A DNA stretch of 46,044 nucleotides from an uncultured bacterium. GTDB lineage: Bacteria > Patescibacteriota > Minisyncoccia > Moranbacterales > UBA2206. Shown piece after piece: positions 7,942 through 43,685 of this stretch (positions are counted from its first letter, which is position 1; each line of letters opens with the position of its first letter). The DNA lies in contig CAIMLT010000029.1 of assembly GCA_903842445.1 (NCBI GenBank), positions 1 through 46,044 of the forward strand, read 5' to 3'. A model generated the notes under the pieces. It was given only the letters and a program-made list of their open reading frames with translations. It searched no databases and was not told where the DNA came from. The position numbers and the translations under genes are program-made.

Positions 7942-8943
7942 ATGCATAAAATAGTTTGTGTTGGTTCGGCTTGCAAGGATATTTTTTTTCCGACTCTTGA
8001 AGGAAAAATAATTGAAACGCCGAATGAAATATTGAGTCAAAAGAAGATTGAATTTGAATTGGGAGCAAAGTATAAAATTGAAGATCGATTTGAAGCTTTG
8101 GGTGGTTGCGCCGCTAATGTGGCAGTGGGACTTTCTCGTTTAGGAATTTCTGCTGCATGTTACGCGCATATTGGCAATGATCAAATGGCTGATTGGATTC
8201 TCTCGGAACTTGAGAAAAATAATATTGGAACCGATTTAATAACAAAAGATAAAGATTTGCCAAGTGATATGTCAGCGATTATTATTGACAAAAATTCTGG
8301 CGAAAGAGTAATTTTTTCCAATCAGAAAGCCAATACGAACTTAACCATAATTCCTGAAAAAATAAATTCCGCAGAGTGGATTTTTATCGGTGATTTGCAT
8401 GGCAATTGGCAAGATCACTTAGATTTGATTTTCAATCTAGCTCGAGAAAATAAAATCAAATTAGCTTACAATCCACGACAAATAAATATTCACGATGATG
8501 TTAAAAAAATAATTGAAAAAATAGCCCAAGCGCAAGTTTTATTTCTCAATAAAGATGAAGCACTGGAAATCATTTCTCAAGTTGGTGATTTTTCGGCGGA
8601 AGATTTGGAGGATGAGAAGTTCTTGCTTAATGAGCTGAAAAAAATAGGAGCAGAGTTGGTGATTATCACCGATGGAGTGCGCGGTGCTTTTGCGAGTAAT
8701 GGTGGTGAGATATTTTTTATTCCTGGAAAAAAGGTTAAGGCAGTTGATTCAACCGGCGCGGGTGATGCTTTTGCGAGCGGTTTTCTTGGAGCTTTTCTCA
8801 AGGGAAAAACGCTAGAAGACTGTCTGAATTGGGGGATTATTAATAGCTCAAGCGAGGTGCAATTTTATGGATCAATTGATGGGCTTCTTTTTGAAGAAGG
8901 AATTTTAGAAAAATCCAAAGTTTTTGAAATTAAAGAGGTTTAA
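7942..8943 (+). CDS. PfkB-family carbohydrate/nucleoside kinase; substrate not assignable
   Basis: GGCAANVAVGLSRLG N-terminal motif and DSTGAGDAFASGFL (DTxGAGD) C-terminal motif of the ribokinase/PfkB superfamily. Confidence 0.85.
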   Translation: MHKIVCVGSACKDIFFPTLEGKIIETPNEILSQKKIEFELGAKYKIEDRFEALGGCAANVAVGLSRLGISAACYAHIGNDQMADWILSELEKNNIGTDLITKDKDLPSDMSAIIIDKNSGERVIFSNQKANTNLTIIPEKINSAEWIFIGDLHGNWQDHLDLIFNLARENKIKLAYNPRQINIHDDVKKIIEKIAQAQVLFLNKDEALEIISQVGDFSAEDLEDEKFLLNELKKIGAELVIITDGVRGAFASNGGEIFFIPGKKVKAVDSTGAGDAFASGFLGAFLKGKTLEDCLNWGIINSSSEVQFYGSIDGLLFEEGILEKSKVFEIKEV

Positions 8944-8974
8944 CAAAATATTTTTATTGTTTAACTTTATTTTT

Positions 8975-11044
8975 ATGAATCTTGAAAAACTTTTTAATCC
9001 ACAGTCGATTGCAATTTTGGGGGCTTCAGAAGAAGTTGGAAAAGTCGGCAATGTAATTTCTAAAAATATCCTAGAGTTAGGATATGCAGGAAAAGTCTAT
9101 TTGGTTAATCCGAAATATGATCAAATTTTTGGAAATAAATGTTACAAAAAACTTTTGGAAGTTGAGGGTGAAATTGATTTGGTAATTGTGGCGATTCCAG
9201 CTAAATTTGTGACCAATGAAATTCGAGAAAATATGCATAAAGTTAAAAACTTTGTGATTGTTTCTGCGGGTTTTTCGGAAACAGGGGAGGAAGGAAGGGC
9301 GCGAGAAAAAGAACTTTTACAATTAGCCGCAGAGAATAATTTGAATATTTTGGGTCCGAATTGCCTTGGGTTTATTATCCCAAAGCTAAAACTCAACGCT
9401 TCTTTTGCTGGTGGTCTTCCGGAAGAGGGCAATGTGGCTTTCGTGACGCAATCAGGCGCGCTGGCTGTTGCGCTGACTGATTTGGCTAAATCTGAAAAAA
9501 TCTATTTCTCAAAGATAGTTTCCATTGGCAATAAAATGAATATTTCCGAAACTGAGATGCTAACATATTTGGAAAAAGATGAGGATACGGCGGTAATTGG
9601 GATGTATCTGGAAGGAATTAAAAATGGAGTTGAATTTATAAAAATCGCCAGTCGGGTTTCGCAAAAAAAGCCAATCGTTATCCTGAAAGCTGGAAAAACA
9701 GAGCGCTCGCAAAAAGCAATTGCCTCACACACCGGAGCGCTGGCCGGTAGCGATGAAATTATGAATGCGGCTTTTCAAAAAGCTGGAATCCTGCGTGCCA
9801 ATGATTTGGAAGAATTTTTCAATTTGATTGGGTTTATTTCGCACAATAAAGCGATGGTGAAAAATAAAGTAGCAGTCATCACTAATGCCGGAGGATTAGG
9901 CGTTCTTGCCACTGATGCTTTTGCAAAAAAAGAGATAGTTCTCGCTGAAATTAGTGAAAAAACAAAAACAGCTCTTCGAAAAATTTTGCCGGAAGAATCT
10001 TCAGTTGAAAATCCAATTGATCTTTTGGGTGATGCCAAGGAAGATCGCTATAAAAAAGTTTTGCAAATTATTGAAAAAGATCCTGAAATTGGCGCAATCA
10101 TCTGTCTGCTTACTCCACAGGATCAAACTCCAGTGGAAAAAATTGCTCAAGCAGTGGATAAGTTTAATATTAAAAGTGGCAAAGTGATTGTGGCGTCTTT
10201 TGTCGGTGGAAAAAAAGTTGAGAAAGGAATTCGAAAATTGAGAATAAGGGATATCTTTAATTTTTCTTTTCCGGAAAGCGCAGTAGCTGTCCTAGACGCA
10301 TATTATCGTTGGAATTTTAAGGAGAAAAATTTGGAGGAGAAATTGACGTTGGATATAAATTTAAATAAAGAACGCAAAAAAAATGTGGCGGGGATTATTG
10401 CCACAGCTAAGAAAGATAATCGGCATGCACTCTATTTTTCAGAAAGCCAAAAGATTATGCAATTATATGGCATCAAGACGATTCCTACTTGTGAAATAAA
10501 TTCCAAAGAAAATTTGCCAGTGAGGAGTGATTTTCCGTTAGTTCTTAAGGTTGATAGTGATGAAGTTTTGCATAAAACAGACAAACAAGGGTTAATTTTA
10601 AACTTAAAAAATCAAACTGAATTGGAAAGTGCGTTTCAAAAAATGCGTAATAATTTTCCTGGTGCAAAATTAATTATCCAGCCAATGCTTGCGCGTGATA
10701 TGGAAATAATTTTGGGGATAAAAAAAGACGTCAACTTCGGGCCGGTGATTGTTTATGGCTTAGGTGGAATTTATACTGAAGTTTTTAAATTAGTCGAAAT
10801 GATTCTGCCACCATTTTCGAAAGAGTTCGTGGAAAAATCTTTGCGAGAAGGAAAGTTGGGATTTCTTTTTGTGCAAACTCGCGGACAAAAGATATATAAC
10901 ATCTCAGAACTCGCACAAATTATTTGTGCCTTAGGTGAGTTTTCGGAAGATCTGGGCGATATCTCCGAATTTGATATTAATCCACTTTTAATTTATAATA
11001 ATGGAAATGAAGCGACTGCTGTGGATGTTAAGGTAATTATTTAA
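8975..11044 (+). CDS. Acetate--CoA ligase (ADP-forming), fused alpha/beta type
   Basis: CoA-binding N-terminus (PQSIAILGASEEVGKVGN), succinyl-CoA-synthetase-like ligase domain (GPNCLG, VTQSGAL, HTGALAG) and a C-terminal ATP-grasp. ATG at 8975 is chosen over 8924, which overlaps the PfkB gene and adds a non-homologous extension. Confidence 0.88.
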   Translation: MNLEKLFNPQSIAILGASEEVGKVGNVISKNILELGYAGKVYLVNPKYDQIFGNKCYKKLLEVEGEIDLVIVAIPAKFVTNEIRENMHKVKNFVIVSAGFSETGEEGRAREKELLQLAAENNLNILGPNCLGFIIPKLKLNASFAGGLPEEGNVAFVTQSGALAVALTDLAKSEKIYFSKIVSIGNKMNISETEMLTYLEKDEDTAVIGMYLEGIKNGVEFIKIASRVSQKKPIVILKAGKTERSQKAIASHTGALAGSDEIMNAAFQKAGILRANDLEEFFNLIGFISHNKAMVKNKVAVITNAGGLGVLATDAFAKKEIVLAEISEKTKTALRKILPEESSVENPIDLLGDAKEDRYKKVLQIIEKDPEIGAIICLLTPQDQTPVEKIAQAVDKFNIKSGKVIVASFVGGKKVEKGIRKLRIRDIFNFSFPESAVAVLDAYYRWNFKEKNLEEKLTLDINLNKERKKNVAGIIATAKKDNRHALYFSESQKIMQLYGIKTIPTCEINSKENLPVRSDFPLVLKVDSDEVLHKTDKQGLILNLKNQTELESAFQKMRNNFPGAKLIIQPMLARDMEIILGIKKDVNFGPVIVYGLGGIYTEVFKLVEMILPPFSKEFVEKSLREGKLGFLFVQTRGQKIYNISELAQIICALGEFSEDLGDISEFDINPLLIYNNGNEATAVDVKVII

Positions 11045-20217: not shown

Positions 20218-20787
20218 ATGAAATATCATAAAGATACAATGGAATTTATCTTTTTTGCGCGGGGTGGGCAAGGAGCAAAAACCGCTGCGGAAATTATTGC
20301 GCAGGCTGCGGTGGCTGAAGGTAATTTCGTGCAAACTTTCCCTAATTTCGGACCTGAGCGCAGTGGTGCGCCAACCAAAACTTATTTGCGTATTTCTGAT
20401 AAGGCTATTCGCACCAAGGAACCAGTTATTGATCCGGACGTAGTGGTTGTTTTAGATGACACGCTTCTTTCAAGCCAGAAAGTAACTGAAGGGTTGGACA
20501 AAAATGAAGCGCTGATTATTAATTCTACGAAGCATTCACATGAGATTAGGAACACCATTCGTTTTGATGGTAAAATTCATGCTGTTGACGCTAATGGAAT
20601 TTCAATGGAAGTTGTTGGACAGCTCAGACCAAACACAGTGATTTTGGGGAAAATTATTAAAGTTACAGAAATTGTGAAATTGGAAAGTATTCTAGAAGAA
20701 TTTCGCAAAATTTTTGAAGAAAAAATCGGCAAAGAGAATTGTGAAAAAAACATTTTGGCAATTGAAAAGGCGTATGATAGTATTTAA
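20218..20787 (+). CDS. porG: Pyruvate/2-oxoacid:ferredoxin oxidoreductase, gamma subunit
   Basis: Motifs FFARGGQGAKTAAEIIAQAA and GPERSGAP. 189 aa. First gene of a gamma-delta-alpha-beta order. Confidence 0.9.
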   Translation: MKYHKDTMEFIFFARGGQGAKTAAEIIAQAAVAEGNFVQTFPNFGPERSGAPTKTYLRISDKAIRTKEPVIDPDVVVVLDDTLLSSQKVTEGLDKNEALIINSTKHSHEIRNTIRFDGKIHAVDANGISMEVVGQLRPNTVILGKIIKVTEIVKLESILEEFRKIFEEKIGKENCEKNILAIEKAYDSI

Positions 20788-20798
20788 CTGAAATTTTT

Positions 20799-21080
20799 AT
20801 GGAAAAAGGCGCAATCATCAAGCATGATATCAAAAAATCTCCCCGGACCGGTTCTTGGCGATATATGAAACCGGAAGTGGATAAAGATAAGTGTATTGGC
20901 TGCGCGACTTGCGTGCCGTTTTGTCCTGAAGCTTCGATAACAGTGAACAGTGAACAAAAGTCAGTGAACAATAAAAAAAAATCAAAAGGTGTTGCTGAAA
21001 TAGATTATGAATTTTGCAAAGGTTGCGGAGTGTGCGCGCAAGTTTGTCCGGTAAAAGCAATTTTAATGAAAAAGAATTAG
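20799..21080 (+). CDS. porD: Pyruvate:ferredoxin oxidoreductase, delta subunit (2x[4Fe-4S] ferredoxin)
   Basis: Two CxxCxxCxxxCP clusters: CIGCATCVPFCP and CKGCGVCAQVCP. 93 aa. Confidence 0.9.
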   Translation: MEKGAIIKHDIKKSPRTGSWRYMKPEVDKDKCIGCATCVPFCPEASITVNSEQKSVNNKKKSKGVAEIDYEFCKGCGVCAQVCPVKAILMKKN

Positions 21081-21083
21081 CTT

Positions 21084-22226
21084 ATGACAAATAATAAAAA
21101 AAACAAATTGGCTTTGACCGGTGGATATGCGGTTGCCTATGCATTGAGGCAAATTGAGCCTGATGTTATGCCGATCTATCCGATCACTCCGCAAACTCCA
21201 ATTATTGAAACTTATGCCAAATTTGTGGCGGATGGCGAAGTTATGACAGAAATGATTGAAGTTGAATCGGAGCATAGCGCGATGAGTGCGGCAATTGGGG
21301 CGTCAGCTGCCGGAGCACGCACAGCGACGGCGACAAGTTCGCAAGGACTTGCCTATATGCATGAAATGCTCTATATCGCATCTGGCATGCGCCTGCCAAT
21401 TCTCATGGTAGTGGCAGCTAGGGCACTTTCAGCGCCACTTAGCATTCACGGTGATCACAGTGATGTAATGGGAAGTCGCGATGCCGGTTGGGTGCAGATT
21501 TTTTGCGAAAATCCACAAGAGGTCTATGACAAAACAATCATCGGGATGAAACTGGCGGAACGTGTCGGACTACCGGTGATGGTGATTATGGATGGATTCA
21601 ACACTTCGCATTCCGTGGAAAATTTGGAGATTTTGGATGCGAAACTCGTCAAAAAATTTATTGGAGAATATCTTCCTGAGCACTCATTGCTTGACATTGA
21701 AAATCCGGTGACGTATGGACCGGTGGCGCTTCAAGAATCTTATTTTGAATTCAAAATTGATCAAGAAGAGGCGATGGCGAAAGTGGCGGAAGAATATTTG
21801 AAGATTTCCAGGGAGTATGAAAAAATCAGTGGAAGAAAATATGGTTTTTTTGAAGAGTATCGCTTGGAAGATGCCGAGAAAGTTTTAGTGCTTATCGGCT
21901 CAGTTGCCGGAACCGCAAAAGATGCGGTTGATGAGCTGCGAAAGAAAGGTGAAAAAGTTGGGTTAATTAAGATTGAACTGTTTCGTCAGTTTCCATTTGC
22001 CAAAATTGCCAATGCGCTAAAAAATGCTAAAGAAATAATCGTGATGGATCGAGCTCAATCAATCGGTTCACATCCGCCACTATATTCAGAAATCATGGTT
22101 GGTCTAAGGGATAGGAGTGATATGAAAATTTCCAGTATTATCTATGGTCTGGGTGGACGAGATGTTTTTAAAAAACAATTTGAAAATATTCTGGAGGGGA
22201 AATTTGATAATAAGTATTTAATTTAA
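21084..22226 (+). CDS. porA: Pyruvate:ferredoxin oxidoreductase, alpha subunit
   Basis: Motifs GGYAVAYALRQIEPDVMPIYPITPQT, ESEHSAMSAAIGASAAGAR and ATSSQGL. 380 aa. Confidence 0.92.
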   Translation: MTNNKKNKLALTGGYAVAYALRQIEPDVMPIYPITPQTPIIETYAKFVADGEVMTEMIEVESEHSAMSAAIGASAAGARTATATSSQGLAYMHEMLYIASGMRLPILMVVAARALSAPLSIHGDHSDVMGSRDAGWVQIFCENPQEVYDKTIIGMKLAERVGLPVMVIMDGFNTSHSVENLEILDAKLVKKFIGEYLPEHSLLDIENPVTYGPVALQESYFEFKIDQEEAMAKVAEEYLKISREYEKISGRKYGFFEEYRLEDAEKVLVLIGSVAGTAKDAVDELRKKGEKVGLIKIELFRQFPFAKIANALKNAKEIIVMDRAQSIGSHPPLYSEIMVGLRDRSDMKISSIIYGLGGRDVFKKQFENILEGKFDNKYLI

Positions 22227-22233
22227 AGGTAAT

Positions 22234-22482
22234 ATGATGAATTTTGTTCCTTGGCAGTTTCATTTTATTTCTCTTGGGGCTGTGGGATTTTGGTTTTTGT
22301 ACTGGGGAATGAAACAGCAAGCAGAATTTAAAGAAGAGCATTTAAACAGCACTACTTGGCTTGGGATTATTTTAGTTCTGATTTCTATCACATCCGTTTT
22401 TTATTCGCAAGGTGTTATTTTTGGGAGTGTATATCTGATTGTGGCTATAATCATTGGAAAATCATATTTTAATGTGATTTAG
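22234..22482 (+). CDS. Small hypothetical membrane protein inserted between porA and porB
   Basis: 82-aa ORF with 2-3 hydrophobic helices, 7 nt after the porA stop and 10 nt before the porB start. No known motif. Confidence 0.5.
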   Translation: MMNFVPWQFHFISLGAVGFWFLYWGMKQQAEFKEEHLNSTTWLGIILVLISITSVFYSQGVIFGSVYLIVAIIIGKSYFNVI

Positions 22483-22492
22483 ATAATTTATT

Positions 22493-23401
22493 ATGAACAA
22501 AAATTTATCAAAACATTTGGCGCCAGGTCATAGCGCTTGCGCAGGATGCGCGTTCCCCTCAATTGTGCGAACGATTCTGGGTGAAGCGACCACGCCGGTG
22601 GTGATTTCCAATGCAACGGGTTGTCTTGAGGTAACTTCAACCATCTATCCCTACACAGCTTGGAATGTGCCCTATATTCATAGTGCTTTTGAAAATGCGG
22701 CGGCAACTATTTCTGGTGTGGAGAGAGCCTATCTGGCGATGAAAAAAAAAGGAAAAATAAAAAAGAAAATTAAGTTTGTAGTGTTTGGCGGAGATGGAGG
22801 TACCTATGATATTGGTCTTCAAAGTTTGTCTGGAGCACTTGAGCGCGGACATGATTTTCTTTATGTTTGCTATGATAACGGTGGCTACATGAACACGGGC
22901 AATCAAAGATCATCAGCTACGCCTTATGGCGCGGGAACAGAAACGACGCCACTAGGAAAAGAATCTTTTGGAAAAGTAGAAACGCGTAAAAGCTTAATGG
23001 AGATAGTTGCGGCGCACAGAATTTCATATGCCGCGCAAGCTAATGTTTCCAATCTAGCTGATCTTAAGACGAAAGCCAAAAAAGCTCTGTCAGTTTCCGG
23101 GCCGTCATTTCTCCTGGTTTTTTCGCCTTGCACAAATAATTGGAAATTTCCAACTTCGCAGTATGTCGCAATTTCTAAGCTGGCGTCTGAAACAAATTTT
23201 TGGCCGCTCTATGAAATTGAAAATGGAAAATACAAACTAAACTTTGAACCAAAGACGCTAAAACCGGTTGCTGAATTTTTGAAAACCCAGGGGCGGTTCA
23301 AGCATTTGTTTTCTGAGAAAAATAAATTGGTTCTAGGGCAAATTCAAAAAAAGGTGAATTCTGAATTTGCGAAAATCGCCAGTCTCTGCGGGCTTCTTTA
23401 A
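22493..23401 (+). CDS. porB: Pyruvate:ferredoxin oxidoreductase, beta subunit (TPP-binding)
   Basis: Motifs GHSACAGCA (cluster Cys) and GGDGGTYDIGLQSL...YDNGGYMNTGNQ (TPP GDG...N motif). 302 aa. Confidence 0.93.
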   Translation: MNKNLSKHLAPGHSACAGCAFPSIVRTILGEATTPVVISNATGCLEVTSTIYPYTAWNVPYIHSAFENAAATISGVERAYLAMKKKGKIKKKIKFVVFGGDGGTYDIGLQSLSGALERGHDFLYVCYDNGGYMNTGNQRSSATPYGAGTETTPLGKESFGKVETRKSLMEIVAAHRISYAAQANVSNLADLKTKAKKALSVSGPSFLLVFSPCTNNWKFPTSQYVAISKLASETNFWPLYEIENGKYKLNFEPKTLKPVAEFLKTQGRFKHLFSEKNKLVLGQIQKKVNSEFAKIASLCGLL

Positions 23402-23973: not shown

Positions 23974-25011
23974 ATGCAAATCGAAAAATTAAAAAAAATT
24001 CTAATTGAAAATGGTGAACCGAAATTTCGTTTAAGCCAGATTAAAAAAGCCATCTATCAAGATGGCGTTTCTGCTTTTTCGGAAATTTCAACTATTTCCA
24101 AAAATTTGCGTGAACTGCTGGAGAAGGAAGTTGAGATTCTGTCATTTGAGGTGGAAAAAGTTTTAGCTTCCAAGGACGGACTATCTCTAAAAGCACTCTT
24201 CAAATTAGTAGACGGAAGTAGAATTGAATCGGTTTTGCTTTCGCCGATAGAAAATAAATGGTCAGTTTGTATTTCTTCCCAAGTTGGATGCCAGTTGAAT
24301 TGCGGTTTTTGCGCAACCGGAAAAAATGGATTTCAAAGAAATCTAACTGCCGAAGAAATTAGCGACCAAGTTTTATTTTGGAGGCAGCACCTACAAAAAA
24401 ATTTCAAATTTAAAATTTCAAATTTAAAATTGACAAACGTCGTCTACATGGGAATGGGGGAGCCGTTTTTGAATTGGGATGAGGTCAGAAAAAGCCTCAA
24501 AGATTTAACAGATAAGGATTTATTTGCTTTCGGTTCGCGAAGTATTTCCGTTTCGACAGCTGGAATACCCGATGGAATTCAAAAACTTGCAGAAGAATTT
24601 CCACAAATTAATTTGGCAATCTCCTTGCATTTTGCAAGTGATGTTAAAAGAAACCAATTTATGCCGATTAATAAAAAATATAATTTAGAAGAATTGAAAA
24701 TGGCTCTCCGCGATTATTTCTCTAAAACCAAAAGGCAAGTTTTTATTGAGTATCTGATGCTATCTGGGATTAATGATAGCGAAGAAGACGCTTACGCACT
24801 TTCAACGTATCTAAAATCAATTGGTAATCGCCAACTTTTGCATGTCAACCTGATTGCCTATAACGAAACAGGCAATTCTTTCAAAGCTTCTTCCGGCAAC
24901 AAAACTCATTTGTTCAAAAACTATCTGGAAAACGGAGGACTTAGCGTAACAATCAGAAAAAGTCTTGGGCAAGAAGTTTCGGGTGCTTGTGGGCAATTGG
25001 CAGGTAAATGA
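23974..25011 (+). CDS. rlmN: 23S rRNA (adenine2503-C2)/tRNA methyltransferase RlmN (radical SAM)
   Basis: Motifs FRLSQI, CISSQVGCQLNCGFCATG, MGMGEPFLN, SVSTAG and the C-terminal Cys in GACGQL. Confidence 0.93.
   Translation: MQIEKLKKILIENGEPKFRLSQIKKAIYQDGVSAFSEISTISKNLRELLEKEVEILSFEVEKVLASKDGLSLKALFKLVDGSRIESVLLSPIENKWSVCISSQVGCQLNCGFCATGKNGFQRNLTAEEISDQVLFWRQHLQKNFKFKISNLKLTNVVYMGMGEPFLNWDEVRKSLKDLTDKDLFAFGSRSISVSTAGIPDGIQKLAEEFPQINLAISLHFASDVKRNQFMPINKKYNLEELKMALRDYFSKTKRQVFIEYLMLSGINDSEEDAYALSTYLKSIGNRQLLHVNLIAYNETGNSFKASSGNKTHLFKNYLENGGLSVTIRKSLGQEVSGACGQLAGK
24401..24431 (+). repeat. 14-bp perfect tandem duplication inside rlmN
   Basis: ATTTCAAATTTAAA at 24401-24414 and again at 24415-24428, then ATT. 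It encodes NFKFKISNLKL. Confidence 0.85.
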
Positions 25012-25017
25012 TTAGAT

Positions 25018-26622
25018 TTAAAGCTTTTTTACCATATAGCTATCTTTCAAGTGATAACCCAATTTTCGATAGTATCCGCGTGCACCGATGCCTGAAATTA
25101 CGGCGATTTTCTTGAGGCCGAATTCATCGTGTGCGATTCGTTCAGCTTCCAAGATTAATTTTTTGCCAAGGCCGATGTGTTGTGGGGAATTTTTGTCGGA
25201 TTTATTAATGCTTGTTAGCTTGCCATAAGTATGCACTTCGCGGATGATGGCGGAATTTTTGAGGACTGATATGACTGGATTCCCGTCTGCACGGGAATGA
25301 CAAAAAGAGGGAATGCGGAGACGAAGAAGTGCGAAAAGTTTTTTATTGTCTCTTGTTGCGTATTCTAGAAAAATTTCTTTTCCATCACTTGCGTCATAAT
25401 CAATGCGGTTGAGAATTATGCTTTCTTTGGGTTTGAAATCTCCACCTACTTCACGGCAACGGATACACTGGCACATTGACTCTTTCTCGATGTTTTGACG
25501 GAGATTGGAAATTGTCGGACCGGCGAGAATGGAAGTTGTCGGCACATCACGCACAAGCCTTGCGATTCTGACATAGGGCGGAATAATATTTTTTTTAATT
25601 TTCAAAATAAATTTGGCAAACTCAATGTCGCCCAGTGGTTGGTATTTTCTTTTTTGGAAAAGTCGATGGAGCGCGGTGTTTTTAGTAACAACAGTCGGAT
25701 AAATTTTTAGCATATCCGGTTGAAAGTTAGAACTTCTGAATAATTCTTGAAACATCTCGTAGTCTCTTTTGAGATTTGAGCCGGGAAGTCCGGGCATAAT
25801 ATGATAATTAATTTTAAAGCCGGCATCTTTTAGGAGTTTAGTAGCCTCAATAGTCGCTTGAATAGAATGTCCGCGCTTATTTATTTTCAAAACATCATCA
25901 AAAATGCTTTGCACGCCAAGTTCAACTCGTGTGCAACCCAGCTTTCGAAAATTCACAATTTCTTCTTCATTAATATAATCCGGGCGAGTTTCCAAGGTTA
26001 AGCCGATAATTCGACATGCGGCTTTTTCGTTGCGGTTTTGTTCTTTTTCTAACGCGGTAGAGACGCGATTAATCGCGTCTCTACGATTAATGTGATAATC
26101 ATTACACGCGCGAAAACATTCCGTGATGAATTTTTTTTGGTAATTTTTTGGAAAATAGGAAAAGGTTCCACCCATCACTATGAGTTCTACTTTTTCAATT
26201 TTATGGCCATTAAGTTCCAGGGCGCGCAGACGCCTTTGAACTTGCCGATGTGGATTAAATTTGGCGGAAATCGCGCGCATAACCGCCGGTTCGTTTGAGA
26301 GATAGCTTTTGGGCATTTCTTTTTCACTTGGGCAATAGATGCATTTTCCAGGACACGGGTATGGCTTAGTGAGAACGGCAACTACAGCCACGCCAGACTG
26401 CGTGCGCATTTTTTTGCTAAGCAAAATTTTTTCAAAGTTAAAGTTTCTTTCAATTTCTTTTTTTGCAATCATTTTTTCGTAATATTCCCGAACGTCGGCA
26501 TTGGTTGGTGGCTGAACAGCAAGTTTTTTGCAGATATCTTTTTTGAGACGCGAAAAATCTGCAGGATCTTCAATATTTGCTTCCATTGCTAATTTTATGA
26601 AATTGTCATAGGATTTAAGCAT
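25018..26622 (-). CDS. elp3: ELP3-family radical-SAM / GNAT acetyltransferase-fold enzyme (tRNA uridine-34 carboxymethyl synthase homologue)
   Basis: Radical-SAM cluster CPGKCIYCP, then LTLETRPDY, ELGVQS and IMPGLPG. C-terminal GNAT: IREVHTYG, QHIGLGKKL and GARGYYRKLGY. 534 aa. Confidence 0.88.
   Translation of the reverse strand: MLKSYDNFIKLAMEANIEDPADFSRLKKDICKKLAVQPPTNADVREYYEKMIAKKEIERNFNFEKILLSKKMRTQSGVAVVAVLTKPYPCPGKCIYCPSEKEMPKSYLSNEPAVMRAISAKFNPHRQVQRRLRALELNGHKIEKVELIVMGGTFSYFPKNYQKKFITECFRACNDYHINRRDAINRVSTALEKEQNRNEKAACRIIGLTLETRPDYINEEEIVNFRKLGCTRVELGVQSIFDDVLKINKRGHSIQATIEATKLLKDAGFKINYHIMPGLPGSNLKRDYEMFQELFRSSNFQPDMLKIYPTVVTKNTALHRLFQKRKYQPLGDIEFAKFILKIKKNIIPPYVRIARLVRDVPTTSILAGPTISNLRQNIEKESMCQCIRCREVGGDFKPKESIILNRIDYDASDGKEIFLEYATRDNKKLFALLRLRIPSFCHSRADGNPVISVLKNSAIIREVHTYGKLTSINKSDKNSPQHIGLGKKLILEAERIAHDEFGLKKIAVISGIGARGYYRKLGYHLKDSYMVKKL
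25277..25301 (-). repeat. Short palindromic element GTCATTCCCG-TGCAGA-CGGGAATCC lying in-frame inside the elp3-like gene
   Basis: 7-bp stem ATTCCCG / CGGGAAT (25279-25298). Both termini are identical to those of the 31108-31158 element. It encodes CHSRADGNPV. Confidence 0.75.
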
Positions 26623-27361
26623 GCGCTTAATTTCTCAAGATTATTTTTTTATGCGTCCGGAAATTATAAATAAAATTCTTCGTGAAACTGAAATTGGTTA
26701 TGACCAGATGGCGGAAAAGTTCTCCAGCACTCGAAAAAATTTTTGGGGCGAATTGGCTTTTATTGCTGATTATATTAAGGATGGGGATAAGATTTTGGAT
26801 TATGGTTGTGGCAATGGTCGGCTTTTGGAAATTCTCAAGAATAAAAAAATTGAGTATGTCGGAATGGATGTCTCTCAAAAGTTGATTGATCTGGCAAAGG
26901 CGAAATATCCTGAGCGCGTTGAGTCTTTTTCTAAAATCACCAGTCAAGCCAGTCTAGCATTTCCGGATAATTTTTTCAATAGAATTATCGCTGTGGCAGT
27001 TTTTCATCATTTTCCGGAAAAATACGCCAAAGAGATGGGAAAAGAATTATTTCGTATTACAAGGCCGGGTGGCACAATAGTTGTTACCGCCTGGAATCTT
27101 TGGCAAAATAAAAGACGCAAAAATATTTTTAATTTTTCAGCTATTTTTGGAAAAATTTTTCAAGTTGGAATATATCGCGGATATTGTCTTTTAGATATTT
27201 TGGTGCCGTTTCGTGATAATCATGGTGGTGTTTTCAAGCGCTATCATCGGGTGTATAATAAAAAAAGCTTAACTGATATTTTCTTGTTTGCCGGTTTTGA
27301 TGTCGAAAAATGCTTTTTGGAAAATGGAAAGAATATTGTTTTAGTTGCAAGAAAAAAATAA
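26621..27361 (+). CDS. Class I SAM-dependent methyltransferase, Trm9/ALKBH8-like motif pattern
   Basis: Motifs FSSTR, SAM motif I LDYGCGNGRL, AVAVFHHF, RPGGTIVVTAWNLWQ, VPF and KRYHRVY. An alternative ATG lies at 26651. Confidence 0.8.
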   Translation: MRLISQDYFFMRPEIINKILRETEIGYDQMAEKFSSTRKNFWGELAFIADYIKDGDKILDYGCGNGRLLEILKNKKIEYVGMDVSQKLIDLAKAKYPERVESFSKITSQASLAFPDNFFNRIIAVAVFHHFPEKYAKEMGKELFRITRPGGTIVVTAWNLWQNKRRKNIFNFSAIFGKIFQVGIYRGYCLLDILVPFRDNHGGVFKRYHRVYNKKSLTDIFLFAGFDVEKCFLENGKNIVLVARKK

Positions 27362-31243: not shown

Positions 31244-31314
31244 TCGGAGATCGTCTAACGGTAGGACAACAGACTCTGACTCTGTTAATTGGGGTTCGAA
31301 TCCCTATCTCCGAA
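31244..31314 (+). tRNA. tRNA-Gln (anticodon CTG)
   Basis: Hand-folded cloverleaf. Acceptor TCGGAGA/TCTCCGA with U1-A72, D stem GTCT/GGAC, anticodon stem ACAGA/TCTGT, loop CTCTGAC, T arm TGGGG-TTCGAAT-CCCTA, discriminator A. No encoded CCA. Confidence 0.9.
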
Positions 31315-31332
31315 CAAATTTATTTTATTCTT

Positions 31333-35477: not shown

Positions 35478-36521
35478 TTATTTTAGAGTTTCTTTTATTT
35501 CTTTAACGCTTTGTGCGCGGACTAATCTCTGGCGAAGTTCTGCGGCACCGGGAAAACCTTTGATATACCAGACTAAATGCTTTCTGATTTCAAAAAGGCC
35601 GAAATCTTTTTTATCGGCAAAAATCAATTCGGCGTGTTTTATTATAATTTTTTTGATTTTAGAAAAAGGATAGTTTGGATATGTGGGATTTTGCAAAATA
35701 GGTTTACTAGAGGTGCTAGCTGGCAGATCCCTGCCTGCCGGCAGGCAGGCTTCGACCCCATTTCTACACTCAGGATGACAGTATGCTGTCATTTTTTTAA
35801 TTTGATCAAAGAGATACGGCTTGCCCCAAGCGCCGCGAGCGATACCGAGGCCGTCCAAGAGGGGATAATTTTTCAATATTTCTACAGCGTCTTTTGCAGT
35901 ATTTATTCCACCGTTGGCAAGAACAATTTTTTCCGGAATTATTTTTTTAACTTCTTCGCAAATCGAAAAATCAACCGGTCCGGAAAAGCCACCTTCATAT
36001 GTCCGGCCATGAATCATTACGGCGGAAAAGTTTAGGTCTTTCACATTTTCAATAAATTCCAGCGCGTCAATATTTTTGTTTTTTATGCCAGCCCTAATTT
36101 TGATGGAAACCGGCAAATCTGTATTTTCACACACGGCTGAAATTATTTCGCGCGCTAATTCGATTTGAGGCATCAGTGCGCAACCAGAACCGTGTTTGAA
36201 AACTTTTTTAGCCGGACAGCCAAAATTGATGTCGATTCCGTCAGGCCTTATTTCTTTGGTGACAATTCTCGTGGCCACGGCAAAATGTTCTGGATTGTTA
36301 CCAAAAAGTTGCACAACATATGGCCTTTCTTTTTTATTAAATCTAACAAGATCCAGTGTTTTTTGTGGTTTATAGAAAAGTGCACTGACGCTAGCCATTT
36401 CTGAATAGGTAACGTCCGCGCCATATTTACGACAAATCTGCCGAAAAGCACTGTCTGTAATTCCGGCCATCGGTGCCAATGCCAAAATTGGTTTTTCAAT
36501 TTTCTGCCAGAAATTTTTCAT
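35478..36521 (-). CDS. dus: tRNA-dihydrouridine synthase (Dus family) carrying an in-frame palindromic-element insertion
   Basis: Motifs LAPMAGITDSAFR, VQLFG, DINFGCP (catalytic Cys), HGRT and GIARGAWGKPYLF. There are about 25 extra residues (CHPECRNGVEACLPAGRDLPAS...) between the barrel and the helical domain. Confidence 0.9.
   Translation of the reverse strand: MKNFWQKIEKPILALAPMAGITDSAFRQICRKYGADVTYSEMASVSALFYKPQKTLDLVRFNKKERPYVVQLFGNNPEHFAVATRIVTKEIRPDGIDINFGCPAKKVFKHGSGCALMPQIELAREIISAVCENTDLPVSIKIRAGIKNKNIDALEFIENVKDLNFSAVMIHGRTYEGGFSGPVDFSICEEVKKIIPEKIVLANGGINTAKDAVEILKNYPLLDGLGIARGAWGKPYLFDQIKKMTAYCHPECRNGVEACLPAGRDLPASTSSKPILQNPTYPNYPFSKIKKIIIKHAELIFADKKDFGLFEIRKHLVWYIKGFPGAAELRQRLVRAQSVKEIKETLK
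35724..35780 (-). repeat. Palindromic element in-frame inside dus
   Basis: Minus strand reads TGTCATCCTGAGTGTAGAAATGGGGTCGAAGCCTGCCTGCCGGCAGGCAGGGATCTGCC. It contains a perfect 20-bp palindrome CCTGCCTGCCGGCAGGCAGG (35730-35749). It starts with the TGTCATCC terminus seen in the other elements. Confidence 0.7.
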
Positions 36522-36802
36522 TACAGGGTAACTCTTATTCCCTTTGCGGTATTTTCTAGTTTAAAACCTAAACTCTCAATAGCTTTTTTTAGTTTTTCAA
36601 CTTTTTTAACCGCCATAGCTTCGGCGTCCTTGTCCGCCGAAGCTTTAGCGAAGGAGGAGGCGTCTTCATCATCAGAAACTTCGCCTGAATCATCAGAAGA
36701 CGTAGTCGTGGCTGTGTCGTCATTTCCATTAGCTGGTAAAACTATTTCCTCATCTCCACTGCAATGATGTGGGCATTGTGAGCAATCGCAAAAATCATCC
36801 AT
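36521..36802 (-). CDS. Hypothetical small acidic protein with N-terminal Cys/His cluster
   Basis: 93-aa ORF. N-terminal DFCDCSQCPHHC, Asp/Ser/Thr-rich middle, basic C-terminal about 30 aa. Its TAA stop overlaps the dus ATG by 1 nt (TAATG). It starts 9 nt after the cysS stop. Confidence 0.5.
   Translation of the reverse strand: MDDFCDCSQCPHHCSGDEEIVLPANGNDDTATTTSSDDSGEVSDDEDASSFAKASADKDAEAMAVKKVEKLKKAIESLGFKLENTAKGIRVTL
36617..36644. repeat. Perfect 10-bp-stem palindrome inside the small acidic ORF
   Basis: AGCTTCGGCG (36617-36626), TCCTTGTC, CGCCGAAGCT (36635-36644). It encodes ASADKDAEA in the minus-strand frame. Confidence 0.8.
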
Positions 36803-43579: not shown

Positions 43580-43651
43580 GGCCTCATCGTCTAGCGGCTA
43601 GGACATCAGGTTCTCATCCTGGAAACAGGGGTTCGATTCCCCTTGAGGCTA
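43580..43651 (+). tRNA. tRNA-Glu (anticodon CTC)
   Basis: Hand-folded cloverleaf. Acceptor GGCCTCA/TGAGGCT (G1-U72 wobble), D arm GTCT-AGCGGCTA-GGAC, anticodon stem TCAGG/CCTGG, loop TTCTCAT, T arm AGGGG-TTCGATT-CCCCT, discriminator A. No encoded CCA. Confidence 0.88.
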
Positions 43652-43685
43652 CAAGAACTAAGCTTGAATATTTGAATTTACTTAT

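Follow-up and report, generated by a model that had tools for sequence, protein, structure and literature searches.

Do some bacteria modify the wobble uridine (U34) of their tRNAs by the two-step pathway of archaea and eukaryotes? The question is raised by two adjacent genes at positions 25018 to 27361 of a 46,044-nucleotide stretch of DNA from an uncultured bacterium of the Moranbacterales (Patescibacteriota; contig CAIMLT010000029.1), hereafter called the window. One encodes a homologue of Elp3, a radical S-adenosylmethionine (SAM) enzyme, and the other a class I SAM-dependent methyltransferase. Elp3 uses a 5'-deoxyadenosyl radical and acetate derived from acetyl-CoA to carboxymethylate C5 of U34 (PMC13315578, PMC6367351), and Trm9 methyl-esterifies 5-carboxymethyluridine (cm5U) to 5-methoxycarbonylmethyluridine (mcm5U) (PMC4678810, PMC6144793). 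An initial annotation of the window, made from its letters alone, had read the pair as a complete, eukaryote-style version of this pathway. That idea is supported in silico by the affinity of the methyltransferase to Trm9 and by the conserved adjacency of the two genes, and we put at roughly 0.7 the probability that Elp3 and the methyltransferase form, as predicted here, a two-step U34 wobble modification module of the archaeal and eukaryotic type.

The two open reading frames (ORFs) of the initial annotation were reproduced, one of 534 aa on the minus strand (elp3, 25018..26622) and one of 246 aa on the plus strand (the methyltransferase gene in its maximal form, 26621..27361). They had been described as back-to-back; their orientation is head-to-head, that is, divergent. 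When both ORFs are taken at their maximal extent, the CATG at 26620-26623 is common to the two start codons. Because the homologues of the methyltransferase are about 236 aa long and begin at the equivalent of its M11, the most likely start is 26651, which yields a protein of 236 aa (26651..27361, plus strand) and places the divergent start codons about 28 bp apart (spacer 26623..26650; sequence read directly). The two products are a predicted tRNA U34 cm5U synthase with radical-SAM and GNAT/KAT domains (Elp3) and a Trm9-like enzyme predicted to be the cm5U34 carboxyl O-methyltransferase.

Judged by its sequence, the window Elp3 is a canonical, full-length Elp3 and not the divergent one that had been announced. 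It scores 550.8 bits against the NCBIfam model TIGR01211 (cutoff 350), with residues 13-534 aligned to positions 7-522 of a model of 522, and Pfam recognizes Radical_SAM (72.4 bits) and Radical_SAM_C (66.3 bits). The Pfam GNAT matches stay below cutoff (19.0 versus 23.6), but MinElp3 and DmcElp3 can be aligned without a break through the KAT domain. In the PDB, the archaeal MinElp3 (6ia8) was matched with 394.6 bits, the bacterial DmcElp3 (5l7j) with 383.3 bits and eukaryotic Elp3 proteins with 321-329 bits. Every Elp3 motif quoted in the initial annotation is present in the translation (CPGKCIYCP, LTLETRPDY, ELGVQS, IREVHTYG, QHIGLGKKL and GARGYYRKLGY). The alignment shows that the three-cysteine [4Fe-4S] radical-SAM motif CPGKCIYCP is the same in the window Elp3 and DmcElp3, that the zinc site CQCIRCREVG in the linker aligns to CRCIRCRE.G and is of the three-cysteine, prokaryotic type (PMC6367351), and that QHIGLGKKL and GARGYYRKLGY, the acetyl-CoA motifs, have their counterparts in QH.G.G..L and.YYR.LGY. 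The window Elp3 thus has its domain layout, Fe-S triad, zinc site and acetyl-CoA motifs in common with both DmcElp3 (5L7J) and MinElp3 (6IA8). It differs from DmcElp3 in an N-terminal extension of about 69 aa, which MinElp3 also has and which partly aligns to the MinElp3 N terminus. Four other Patescibacteria Elp3 proteins that we sampled are likewise extended (roughly 70-85 residues, the window Elp3 included). This extension has been reported to be relevant to tRNA binding, and its absence has been tied to the weak activity of DmcElp3 (PMC6367351, PMC7663514).

The translation of the methyltransferase holds the motifs FSSTR, LDYGCGNGRL, AVAVFHHF, RPGGTIVVTAWNLWQ, VPF and KRYHRVY, all as quoted in the initial annotation, and the set is not a chance resemblance, since none of these residues varies among the 81 copies of the family. 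Its closest homologues (77-81% identity) come from metagenome-assembled genomes (MAGs) of Patescibacteria resembling Moraniibacteriota, in agreement with the earlier guess of a bacterium of the candidate phyla radiation (CPR). A profile built from 51 sequences of the broad family (A2) and searched against the PDB found the Yarrowia lipolytica Trm9 chain 5cm2_Z best, with 106.4 bits and an E value of 1.4e-29, ahead of matches with 84.4 and 83.7 bits, and the alignment ran end to end (profile positions 25-231, chain residues 2-194). A second profile (A3) was restricted to the C-terminal 91 positions, which comprise the lid and beta6-beta7 without the SAM-binding core; among 177,635 PDB sequences, 5cm2_Z was its sole significant match (E of 2.1e-6; the next had an E of 0.39). 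In line with these results, an AlphaFold2 (AF2) model of the methyltransferase (pLDDT 90.9) retrieved 5cm2_Z first in a Foldseek search, with the top target-normalised TM score (0.80), the lowest root mean square deviation (2.9 A) and the highest identity (24%); its margin over the next match in E value was small. The strands at residues 192-198 and 204-210 of the model form a two-stranded beta lid between beta5 and alphaE, in the region of the PW and RYYH motifs, and align to DVMVPW...RYRYYHLY of 5cm2_Z. The motif order that the initial annotation gave for Trm9 and ALKBH8 is thus borne out by A2, A3 and Foldseek as well as by the active-site residues discussed below. A generic UbiE/SmtA-type enzyme, the other possibility that it had named, is not what these searches returned. 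Together the comparisons support Trm9, and not another class I methyltransferase, as the probable closest characterised relative.

The family to which this protein belongs is large. An exhaustive profile search of sequence representatives gave at least 647 clusters (at 50% identity) with E <= 1e-30, and all 150 matches listed were members of the family, so that a search meant to reveal the next-nearest family instead supplied distant members. Some of these carry canonical Trm9 motifs, for example WIPW...LRYYHIF and FLPW...KRYYHAF. Source annotations call members of the family UbiE, trans-aconitate methyltransferase or "class I SAM-dependent methyltransferase"; NCBI labels are generic, and the automatic JGI pipeline names some members TRM9 or ALKBH8 and others UbiE. 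The Trm9 signal is therefore visible to KEGG orthology (KO) models, though undescribed. A few members have unusual architectures: P0154 has a hydrophobic N-terminal extension of 88 aa, and P0181, P0186 and P0239 are lengthened by 40-100 aa inserted between VWNLWQ and the PW lid.

The residues on which Trm9 activity depends allow a finer comparison. Mutagenesis of Saccharomyces cerevisiae Trm9 (ScTrm9) by Letoquart et al. showed that R29, D72, H116, W145, W168, R241, Y243 and N271 are required, in that alanine mutants abolish or cripple activity, and H115 and Q149 are conserved (PMC4678810). We recovered the Yarrowia sequence (YlTrm9) from the alignment and checked its register against the residues named in PMC4678810; in the block of 51 sequences, all the Yarrowia residues fit. 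On this basis R29, D72 and H115/H116 of ScTrm9 correspond to R38, D83 and H129/H130 of the window protein, W145 and Q149 to W158 and Q162, W168 to F197, R241 to R207, Y243 to H209 and N271 to N238. In the set of 81 Moranbacteria-type copies, R38, D83, H129, H130, W158, F197, R207, H209 and N238 are invariant (81/81) and Q162 is not, so that six of the eight required Trm9 residues (R38, D83, H130, W158, R207 and N238) are kept throughout. In the broad family, 46-51 of the 51 sequences keep each of the equivalents R, D, H, H, W, R and N. In addition, Y27 precedes R38 by 11 residues, the same spacing as between Y18 and R29 in ScTrm9, a correspondence taken from published numbering only, as the crystal construct lacks the region.

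A scan of species-representative genomes for relatives of the methyltransferase gave 344, and the best 80 loci, all from MAGs of Patescibacteria, mostly Moraniibacteriota, and phylogenetically related to one another, were analysed with 16-kb flanks. Elp3 is the upstream neighbour of the methyltransferase on the opposite strand in 77 of the 80, and in 72 of these 77 the 5' ends of the two genes lie within about 260 bp of each other; in three loci the 5' ends of the two matches are 1.8-2.6 kb apart. The YbeY/DgkA/FtsA block downstream in the window is kept in only 14 of the 80 loci, with UppP, ParA/ParB or other genes in its place elsewhere. Because the adjacency to Elp3 survives while the downstream block is mostly lost, the pairing is not mere synteny. 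Distant family members, of which the sample was small (n = 8), adjoin a head-to-head Elp3 in five cases, in unrelated contexts. These linked Elp3 proteins are 44-61% identical to each other, and TIGR01211 confirmed two of the five (549 and 574 bits).

The same arrangement recurs in Dehalococcoidia. Starting from a DmcElp3 sequence reconstructed out of its PDB alignment, we gathered homologues and examined four Elp3 contexts. In Dehalococcoides mccartyi (CP019867.1, L089:5283-7380), a 224-aa class I methyltransferase stands head-to-head with Elp3 at a distance of 43 bp, and a second genome of Dehalococcoidia type (L090:5252-7386) has the same pair at 74 bp. A third contig (L092:1-1527), cut 153 bp upstream of Elp3, retains a matching methyltransferase N terminus on the opposite strand, whereas the fourth context of Dehalococcoidia type lacks the methyltransferase; the pair is thus found in three of four loci. 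On the Patescibacteria profile the Dehalococcoidia methyltransferases score 129-140 bits, with 135 (D. mccartyi) and 140 for the two full-length proteins, each aligned along its whole length, compared with 106 for YlTrm9, and the full-length proteins carry SFHH, VWN.LQ, VPW, RYY[RH]L and RNI. Bacterial Elp3 loci thus include the pair in at least two phyla, and its conservation in related genomes, which the initial annotation had named as a check, holds in the Patescibacteria loci, in most of the distant members and in Dehalococcoidia.

Several contigs in these surveys have labels or contents that deserve separate mention. L092 is titled "Bacteroidota bacterium", which may be wrong; its Elp3 shares 66% identity with DmcElp3. 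The title "uncultured Bdellovibrionales bacterium" is borne by thirteen contigs (L018, L019, L021, L046, L053, L061, L071, L073, L075, L076 and L078-L080) whose methyltransferases are 43-54% identical to that of the window, with an Elp3 partner in all except L061, and L021 has RlmN, YbeY, DgkA and FtsA neighbours as well; the Bdellovibrionales labels of these MAGs look wrong. L056, L061 and L062 are close relatives without a nearby Elp3. In L056 (6742-8759), an FAD enzyme of the TIGR00275 "aminoacetone oxidase family" (453 bits) lies directly upstream of the methyltransferase on the same strand.

The distance between the called ORF starts ranges from overlap to about 250 bp in most of the 80 loci and is 0-30 bp in roughly a third. 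Where the divergent starts are only 0-30 bp apart, the promoter and ribosome-binding site of each gene must lie inside the coding sequence of the other. The head-to-head layout with its near-absent spacer suggests that the two genes may be co-regulated from overlapping divergent promoters. Spacers of 0-30 bp, with abutting or overlapping start codons, are also seen in loci L016, L017, L055, L058, L060 and L070. A scan of the divergent region for consensus sigma-70 promoters found 3 sites where 1.4 were expected, which is uninformative.

In the pathway that we propose, Elp3 would add a carboxymethyl group at C5 of U34 to give cm5U34, relying on a radical domain with a [4Fe-4S] cluster and SAM and on a KAT domain that binds acetyl-CoA. 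The Trm9-type methyltransferase would then produce mcm5U34 by esterifying the carboxylate with SAM. Judging from the Yarrowia Trm9 model, R38 and H130 would position the carboxylate and H129 and N238 would read the uracil, while W158 would stack on U34 and F197 on a base next to it. Where MnmA also 2-thiolates the tRNA, the 2-thio derivative mcm5s2U34 would result. One locus (L084:4393-7795) holds Elp3 (minus strand), the Trm9-like gene (plus strand) and MnmA (minus strand) together, with MnmA converging on the methyltransferase gene and overlapping its 3' end. This MnmA 2-thiouridylase scores 373 bits (cutoff 284), and its position next to the pair suggests a product of the mcm5s2U type. MnmA was rejected as a regular third member of the locus: apart from L084, it accompanies the pair in L071 alone, at a distance of about 7 kb.

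A number of observations count against the two-step module. In Pfam, the methyltransferase matches only generic class I models (Methyltransf_11 with 63 bits, Methyltransf_23 and Methyltransf_25). When single sequences were searched against the PDB, 5cm2_Z came first only marginally for the window protein (44.5 versus 42.0 bits), second for family member P0260 and seventh for the Dehalococcoides methyltransferase. With a narrow profile of 32 close relatives (A1), Trm9 tied with PH0226, an uncharacterised generic Pyrococcus protein. Two required Trm9 residues are replaced, W168 by F197 and Y243 by H209, and the replacements are fixed in the window protein and all close copies (81/81). In three of the 80 loci there is no Elp3 within 8 kb, and three of the eight distant members do not adjoin Elp3 (two of them on very short contigs). 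Finally, a Pfam scan of the window genes and the small intergenic ORFs found no Trm112, as the initial annotation had said, and ORF clustering found no small conserved ORF accompanying the pair in the flanks of the 80 loci.

Taken alone, the single-sequence and A1 tests leave membership in the Trm9 family undecided, and broader profiles were therefore needed. Pfam, NCBIfam and single-sequence phmmer searches of the PDB, which returned generic matches or near-ties, were dropped as a membership test. The initial annotation had assigned the motif order to Trm9 with caution; the caution was justified, given the ambiguity of the single-sequence searches, and the assignment itself proved correct by the profiles. 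No NCBIfam model reaches its cutoff with the methyltransferase either: the best, TIGR01934, gives 49.1 bits against a cutoff of 158.35, the others are far below, and the protein falls short of the equivalog cutoffs for UbiE/MenG, SmtA and other generic class I enzymes. As for the substitutions, the W168 position is always aromatic in the broad family (W in 29, F in 19 and Y in 3), and the Y243 position is variable (Y in 15, H in 11, F in 9, C in 6 and L in 6), and the F and H of the window protein lie within a continuum that includes the canonical forms.

The alternative with the most weight, although we consider it unlikely, keeps the same pathway and gives the methyltransferase an obligate partner: as in eukaryotes and Haloferax, it would form a heterodimer with a zinc-knuckle protein of the Trm112 kind, whose gene would lie at another place in the genome. 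Every Trm9 or ALKBH8 enzyme characterised so far depends on Trm112 to be soluble and active (PMC4678810, PMC6144793), and short Trm112 proteins of the YcaR type are widespread in bacteria, so far without a known partner (PMC5372719). Part of the Trm112 interface is also kept in the window protein, where A110, P112 and F116 are the equivalents of A113, P115 and F119. Many class I methyltransferases share the segment that contains these positions, which lessens their weight. Against a partner stand the lack of a Trm112-like ORF in the window or travelling with the pair in the 80 loci and the character of the surface itself. V59 and F78, central contacts among the six hydrophobic YlTrm9 residues that are buried by Trm112, are replaced in the window protein by K57 (of Lys/Arg type, and polar in 80/81) and E78 (of Glu/Asp type, and polar in 81/81), so that both contacts are charged or polar in essentially all members, and a near-invariant lysine, K105, lies on the edge (zipper) strand. 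A regular expression for the Trm112 zinc knuckle gave no match, which is weak evidence by itself. For the two-step pathway, these features hint that the methyltransferase may work without a Trm112 partner, and on this weaker part of the proposal we find the odds about even.

A markedly less likely alternative keeps the methyltransferase downstream of Elp3 on tRNA and gives it a different end product, either with the ester as an intermediate to an amide- or hydroxy-type derivative or with another atom of the xm5U34 side chain or the anticodon loop as the methylated one. In its favour, the substrate-facing F197 and H209 differ from their Trm9 counterparts, the position of Y243 varies (Y, H, F, C or L), and cm5U is readily diverted to other derivatives without Trm9 in Haloferax and yeast (PMC6144793). 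It has to contend with the fact that the R/H dyad for the carboxylate, the H and N that read the uracil and the W that stacks are all invariant, and with the finding that ORF clustering of the 80 loci disclosed no further conserved partner enzyme beside the Elp3/methyltransferase pair. Last in weight, after a distant Trm112 partner and a different end product, comes the very improbable reading of the methyltransferase as a generic small-molecule or other-RNA class I enzyme of UbiE/SmtA type, placed beside Elp3 by inherited synteny and functionally independent of it. Generic or UbiE-like labels from Pfam, NCBIfam and numerous source annotations speak for this reading, the single-sequence PDB ranking is ambiguous and some members are unlinked to Elp3, but the pairing survives full turnover of both flanks, divergence of Elp3 to 44-61% identity and a jump between phyla, the C-terminal module matches Trm9 alone, and the catalytic residues peculiar to Trm9 that lie away from the SAM site do not vary. 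The turnover of the flanks and the C-terminal match to Trm9 alone make a generic enzyme unlikely.

The pair can be set beside known systems. The window family shares with the methyltransferase domain of Trm9 and ALKBH8 (with Trm112; 5CM2) the class I fold, the two-stranded lid after beta5, the end-to-end profile alignment and the motifs FSxTR..W, DxGCGNG, AVxHH, VWxLxQ, P[W/F], R-[YF]-x-H and a C-terminal Asn. It differs from Trm9 in an identity of only about 24%, in F for W168 and H for Y243 in the Moranbacteria lineage, and in the charged or polar V59 and F78 positions, and from Trm9 and ALKBH8 together in having no RRM or AlkB domain and no Trm112 seen nearby. Haloferax volcanii Trm9-Trm112 (HVO_1032) converts cm5U to mcm5U, and the Elp3 and Trm9 genes of Sulfolobus cluster (PMC6144793, PMC2584109). 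The archaeal system, exemplified by Haloferax and the Sulfolobus solfataricus cluster, is an Elongator-free combination of Elp3 and Trm9, as predicted for the window pair; archaeal Trm9 needs Trm112, and it has been reported only in Sulfolobales and Halobacteriales (PMC5372719).

Bacteria also have other routes to modified U34. MnmE-MnmG (with MnmC), which make (c)mnm5U34, act on the same atom, C5 of U34, in the same class of tRNAs and with the same MnmA thiolation as the Elp3 route, yet the enzymes are unrelated to Elp3, being a GTPase and an FAD/folate enzyme that use glycine instead of a radical-SAM enzyme that uses acetyl-CoA. Escherichia coli CmoM (formerly SmtA) is a stand-alone class I methyltransferase that esterifies the side-chain carboxyl of a U34 derivative, converting cmo5U to mcmo5U, and its substrate comes from the CmoA/CmoB pathway, not from Elp3. 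No CmoM-like structure was among the best PDB matches of profile A2.

Previous reviews placed this chemistry largely outside Bacteria. Homologues of the Trm112-dependent methyltransferases, Trm9 included, were described as undetectable in bacteria (PMC5372719), and bacterial Elp3 as confined to one clade, Dehalococcoides, with direct evidence for bacterial cm5U-derived nucleosides (xcm5U34) absent (PMC7663514). The literature that we searched held nothing relevant on Elp3/Trm9 or MnmE/MnmG in Patescibacteria or CPR bacteria and no description of a bacterial Elp3-Trm9 pair; an earlier mention of the D. mccartyi neighbour is possible. The presence of Elp3 in some bacteria is already known, NCBI naming the proteins as such, and what our comparisons support as new is a predicted extension of the Elp3-Trm9 pathway to Bacteria, possibly with variant features in the absence of Trm112 and in the F and H substitutions.

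The remainder of the window consists of ordinary Patescibacteria housekeeping genes, among them those for rubrerythrin, GyrB, glycolytic enzymes, an ADP-forming acetyl-CoA synthetase, subunits of pyruvate:ferredoxin oxidoreductase (PFOR), Ogt, RlmN, YbeY, DgkA, FtsA, FtsZ, IspH, a pseudouridine synthase, L21, RecR, DnaB, Dus, CysRS, CorA and SMC, together with tRNA-Gln(CUG) and tRNA-Glu(CUC). MnmE, MnmG, MnmA and Trm112 were not found among the ORFs scanned in these 46 kb. The gene for RlmN (TIGR00048, 316 bits; 23974-25011, plus strand) is convergent with elp3 and ends 6 bp before the elp3 3' end, and in 46 of the 80 related loci there is an RlmN homologue no more than 8 kb from Elp3, on its far (3') side. 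RlmN is thus a second radical-SAM RNA modifier near Elp3, with a looser linkage than that of the methyltransferase, which may be plain synteny. The ADP-forming acetyl-CoA synthetase and a 2-oxoacid:ferredoxin oxidoreductase of four-subunit type (gamma, delta-ferredoxin, alpha and beta), at 8924-11044 and 20218-23401, are likely sources of acetyl-CoA/acetate and of low-potential electrons for Elp3; no linkage is claimed. The tRNA-Gln(CUG) and tRNA-Glu(CUC) genes, at 31244-31315 and 43580-43652, specify C34 isoacceptors for G-ending codons. In a small genome of 38% GC, such isoacceptors would fit a restricted decoding by U34 tRNAs, as with mcm5s2U in eukaryotes, a speculative connection; the window has no genes for the U34 tRNAs concerned. 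Between Dus and CysRS, a 93-aa ORF (36521-36802, minus strand) has a Cys/His-rich N terminus (CDCSQCPHHC) and, after it, an acidic stretch of low complexity; Pfam gives it no match and does not mark it as Trm112-like.

A Trm9-like divergent neighbour of Elp3 in Patescibacteria and in D. mccartyi challenges the review statements in PMC5372719 and PMC7663514, and it turns the question of the in vivo role of bacterial Elp3 and the fate of its product into a simple two-gene experiment. It also offers structural and enzymological work a possibly Trm112-independent Trm9, and it would let a family of no fewer than 647 sequence clusters be named by function. Bacterial Elp3 proteins of the long form may be better tRNA binders than DmcElp3, whose activity is weak. 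A broader reading, which we hold only tentatively and regard as somewhat doubtful, is that in Patescibacteria and Dehalococcoidia the MnmE/MnmG route is unused or replaced and mcm5(s2)U34 is made by Elp3 and a Trm112-independent Trm9 encoded as a conserved head-to-head pair. If true, Bacteria would have their first case of mcm5U-type wobble chemistry, which would suggest either an ancient inter-domain transfer of the Elp3-Trm9 pathway or an origin that predates the last universal common ancestor.

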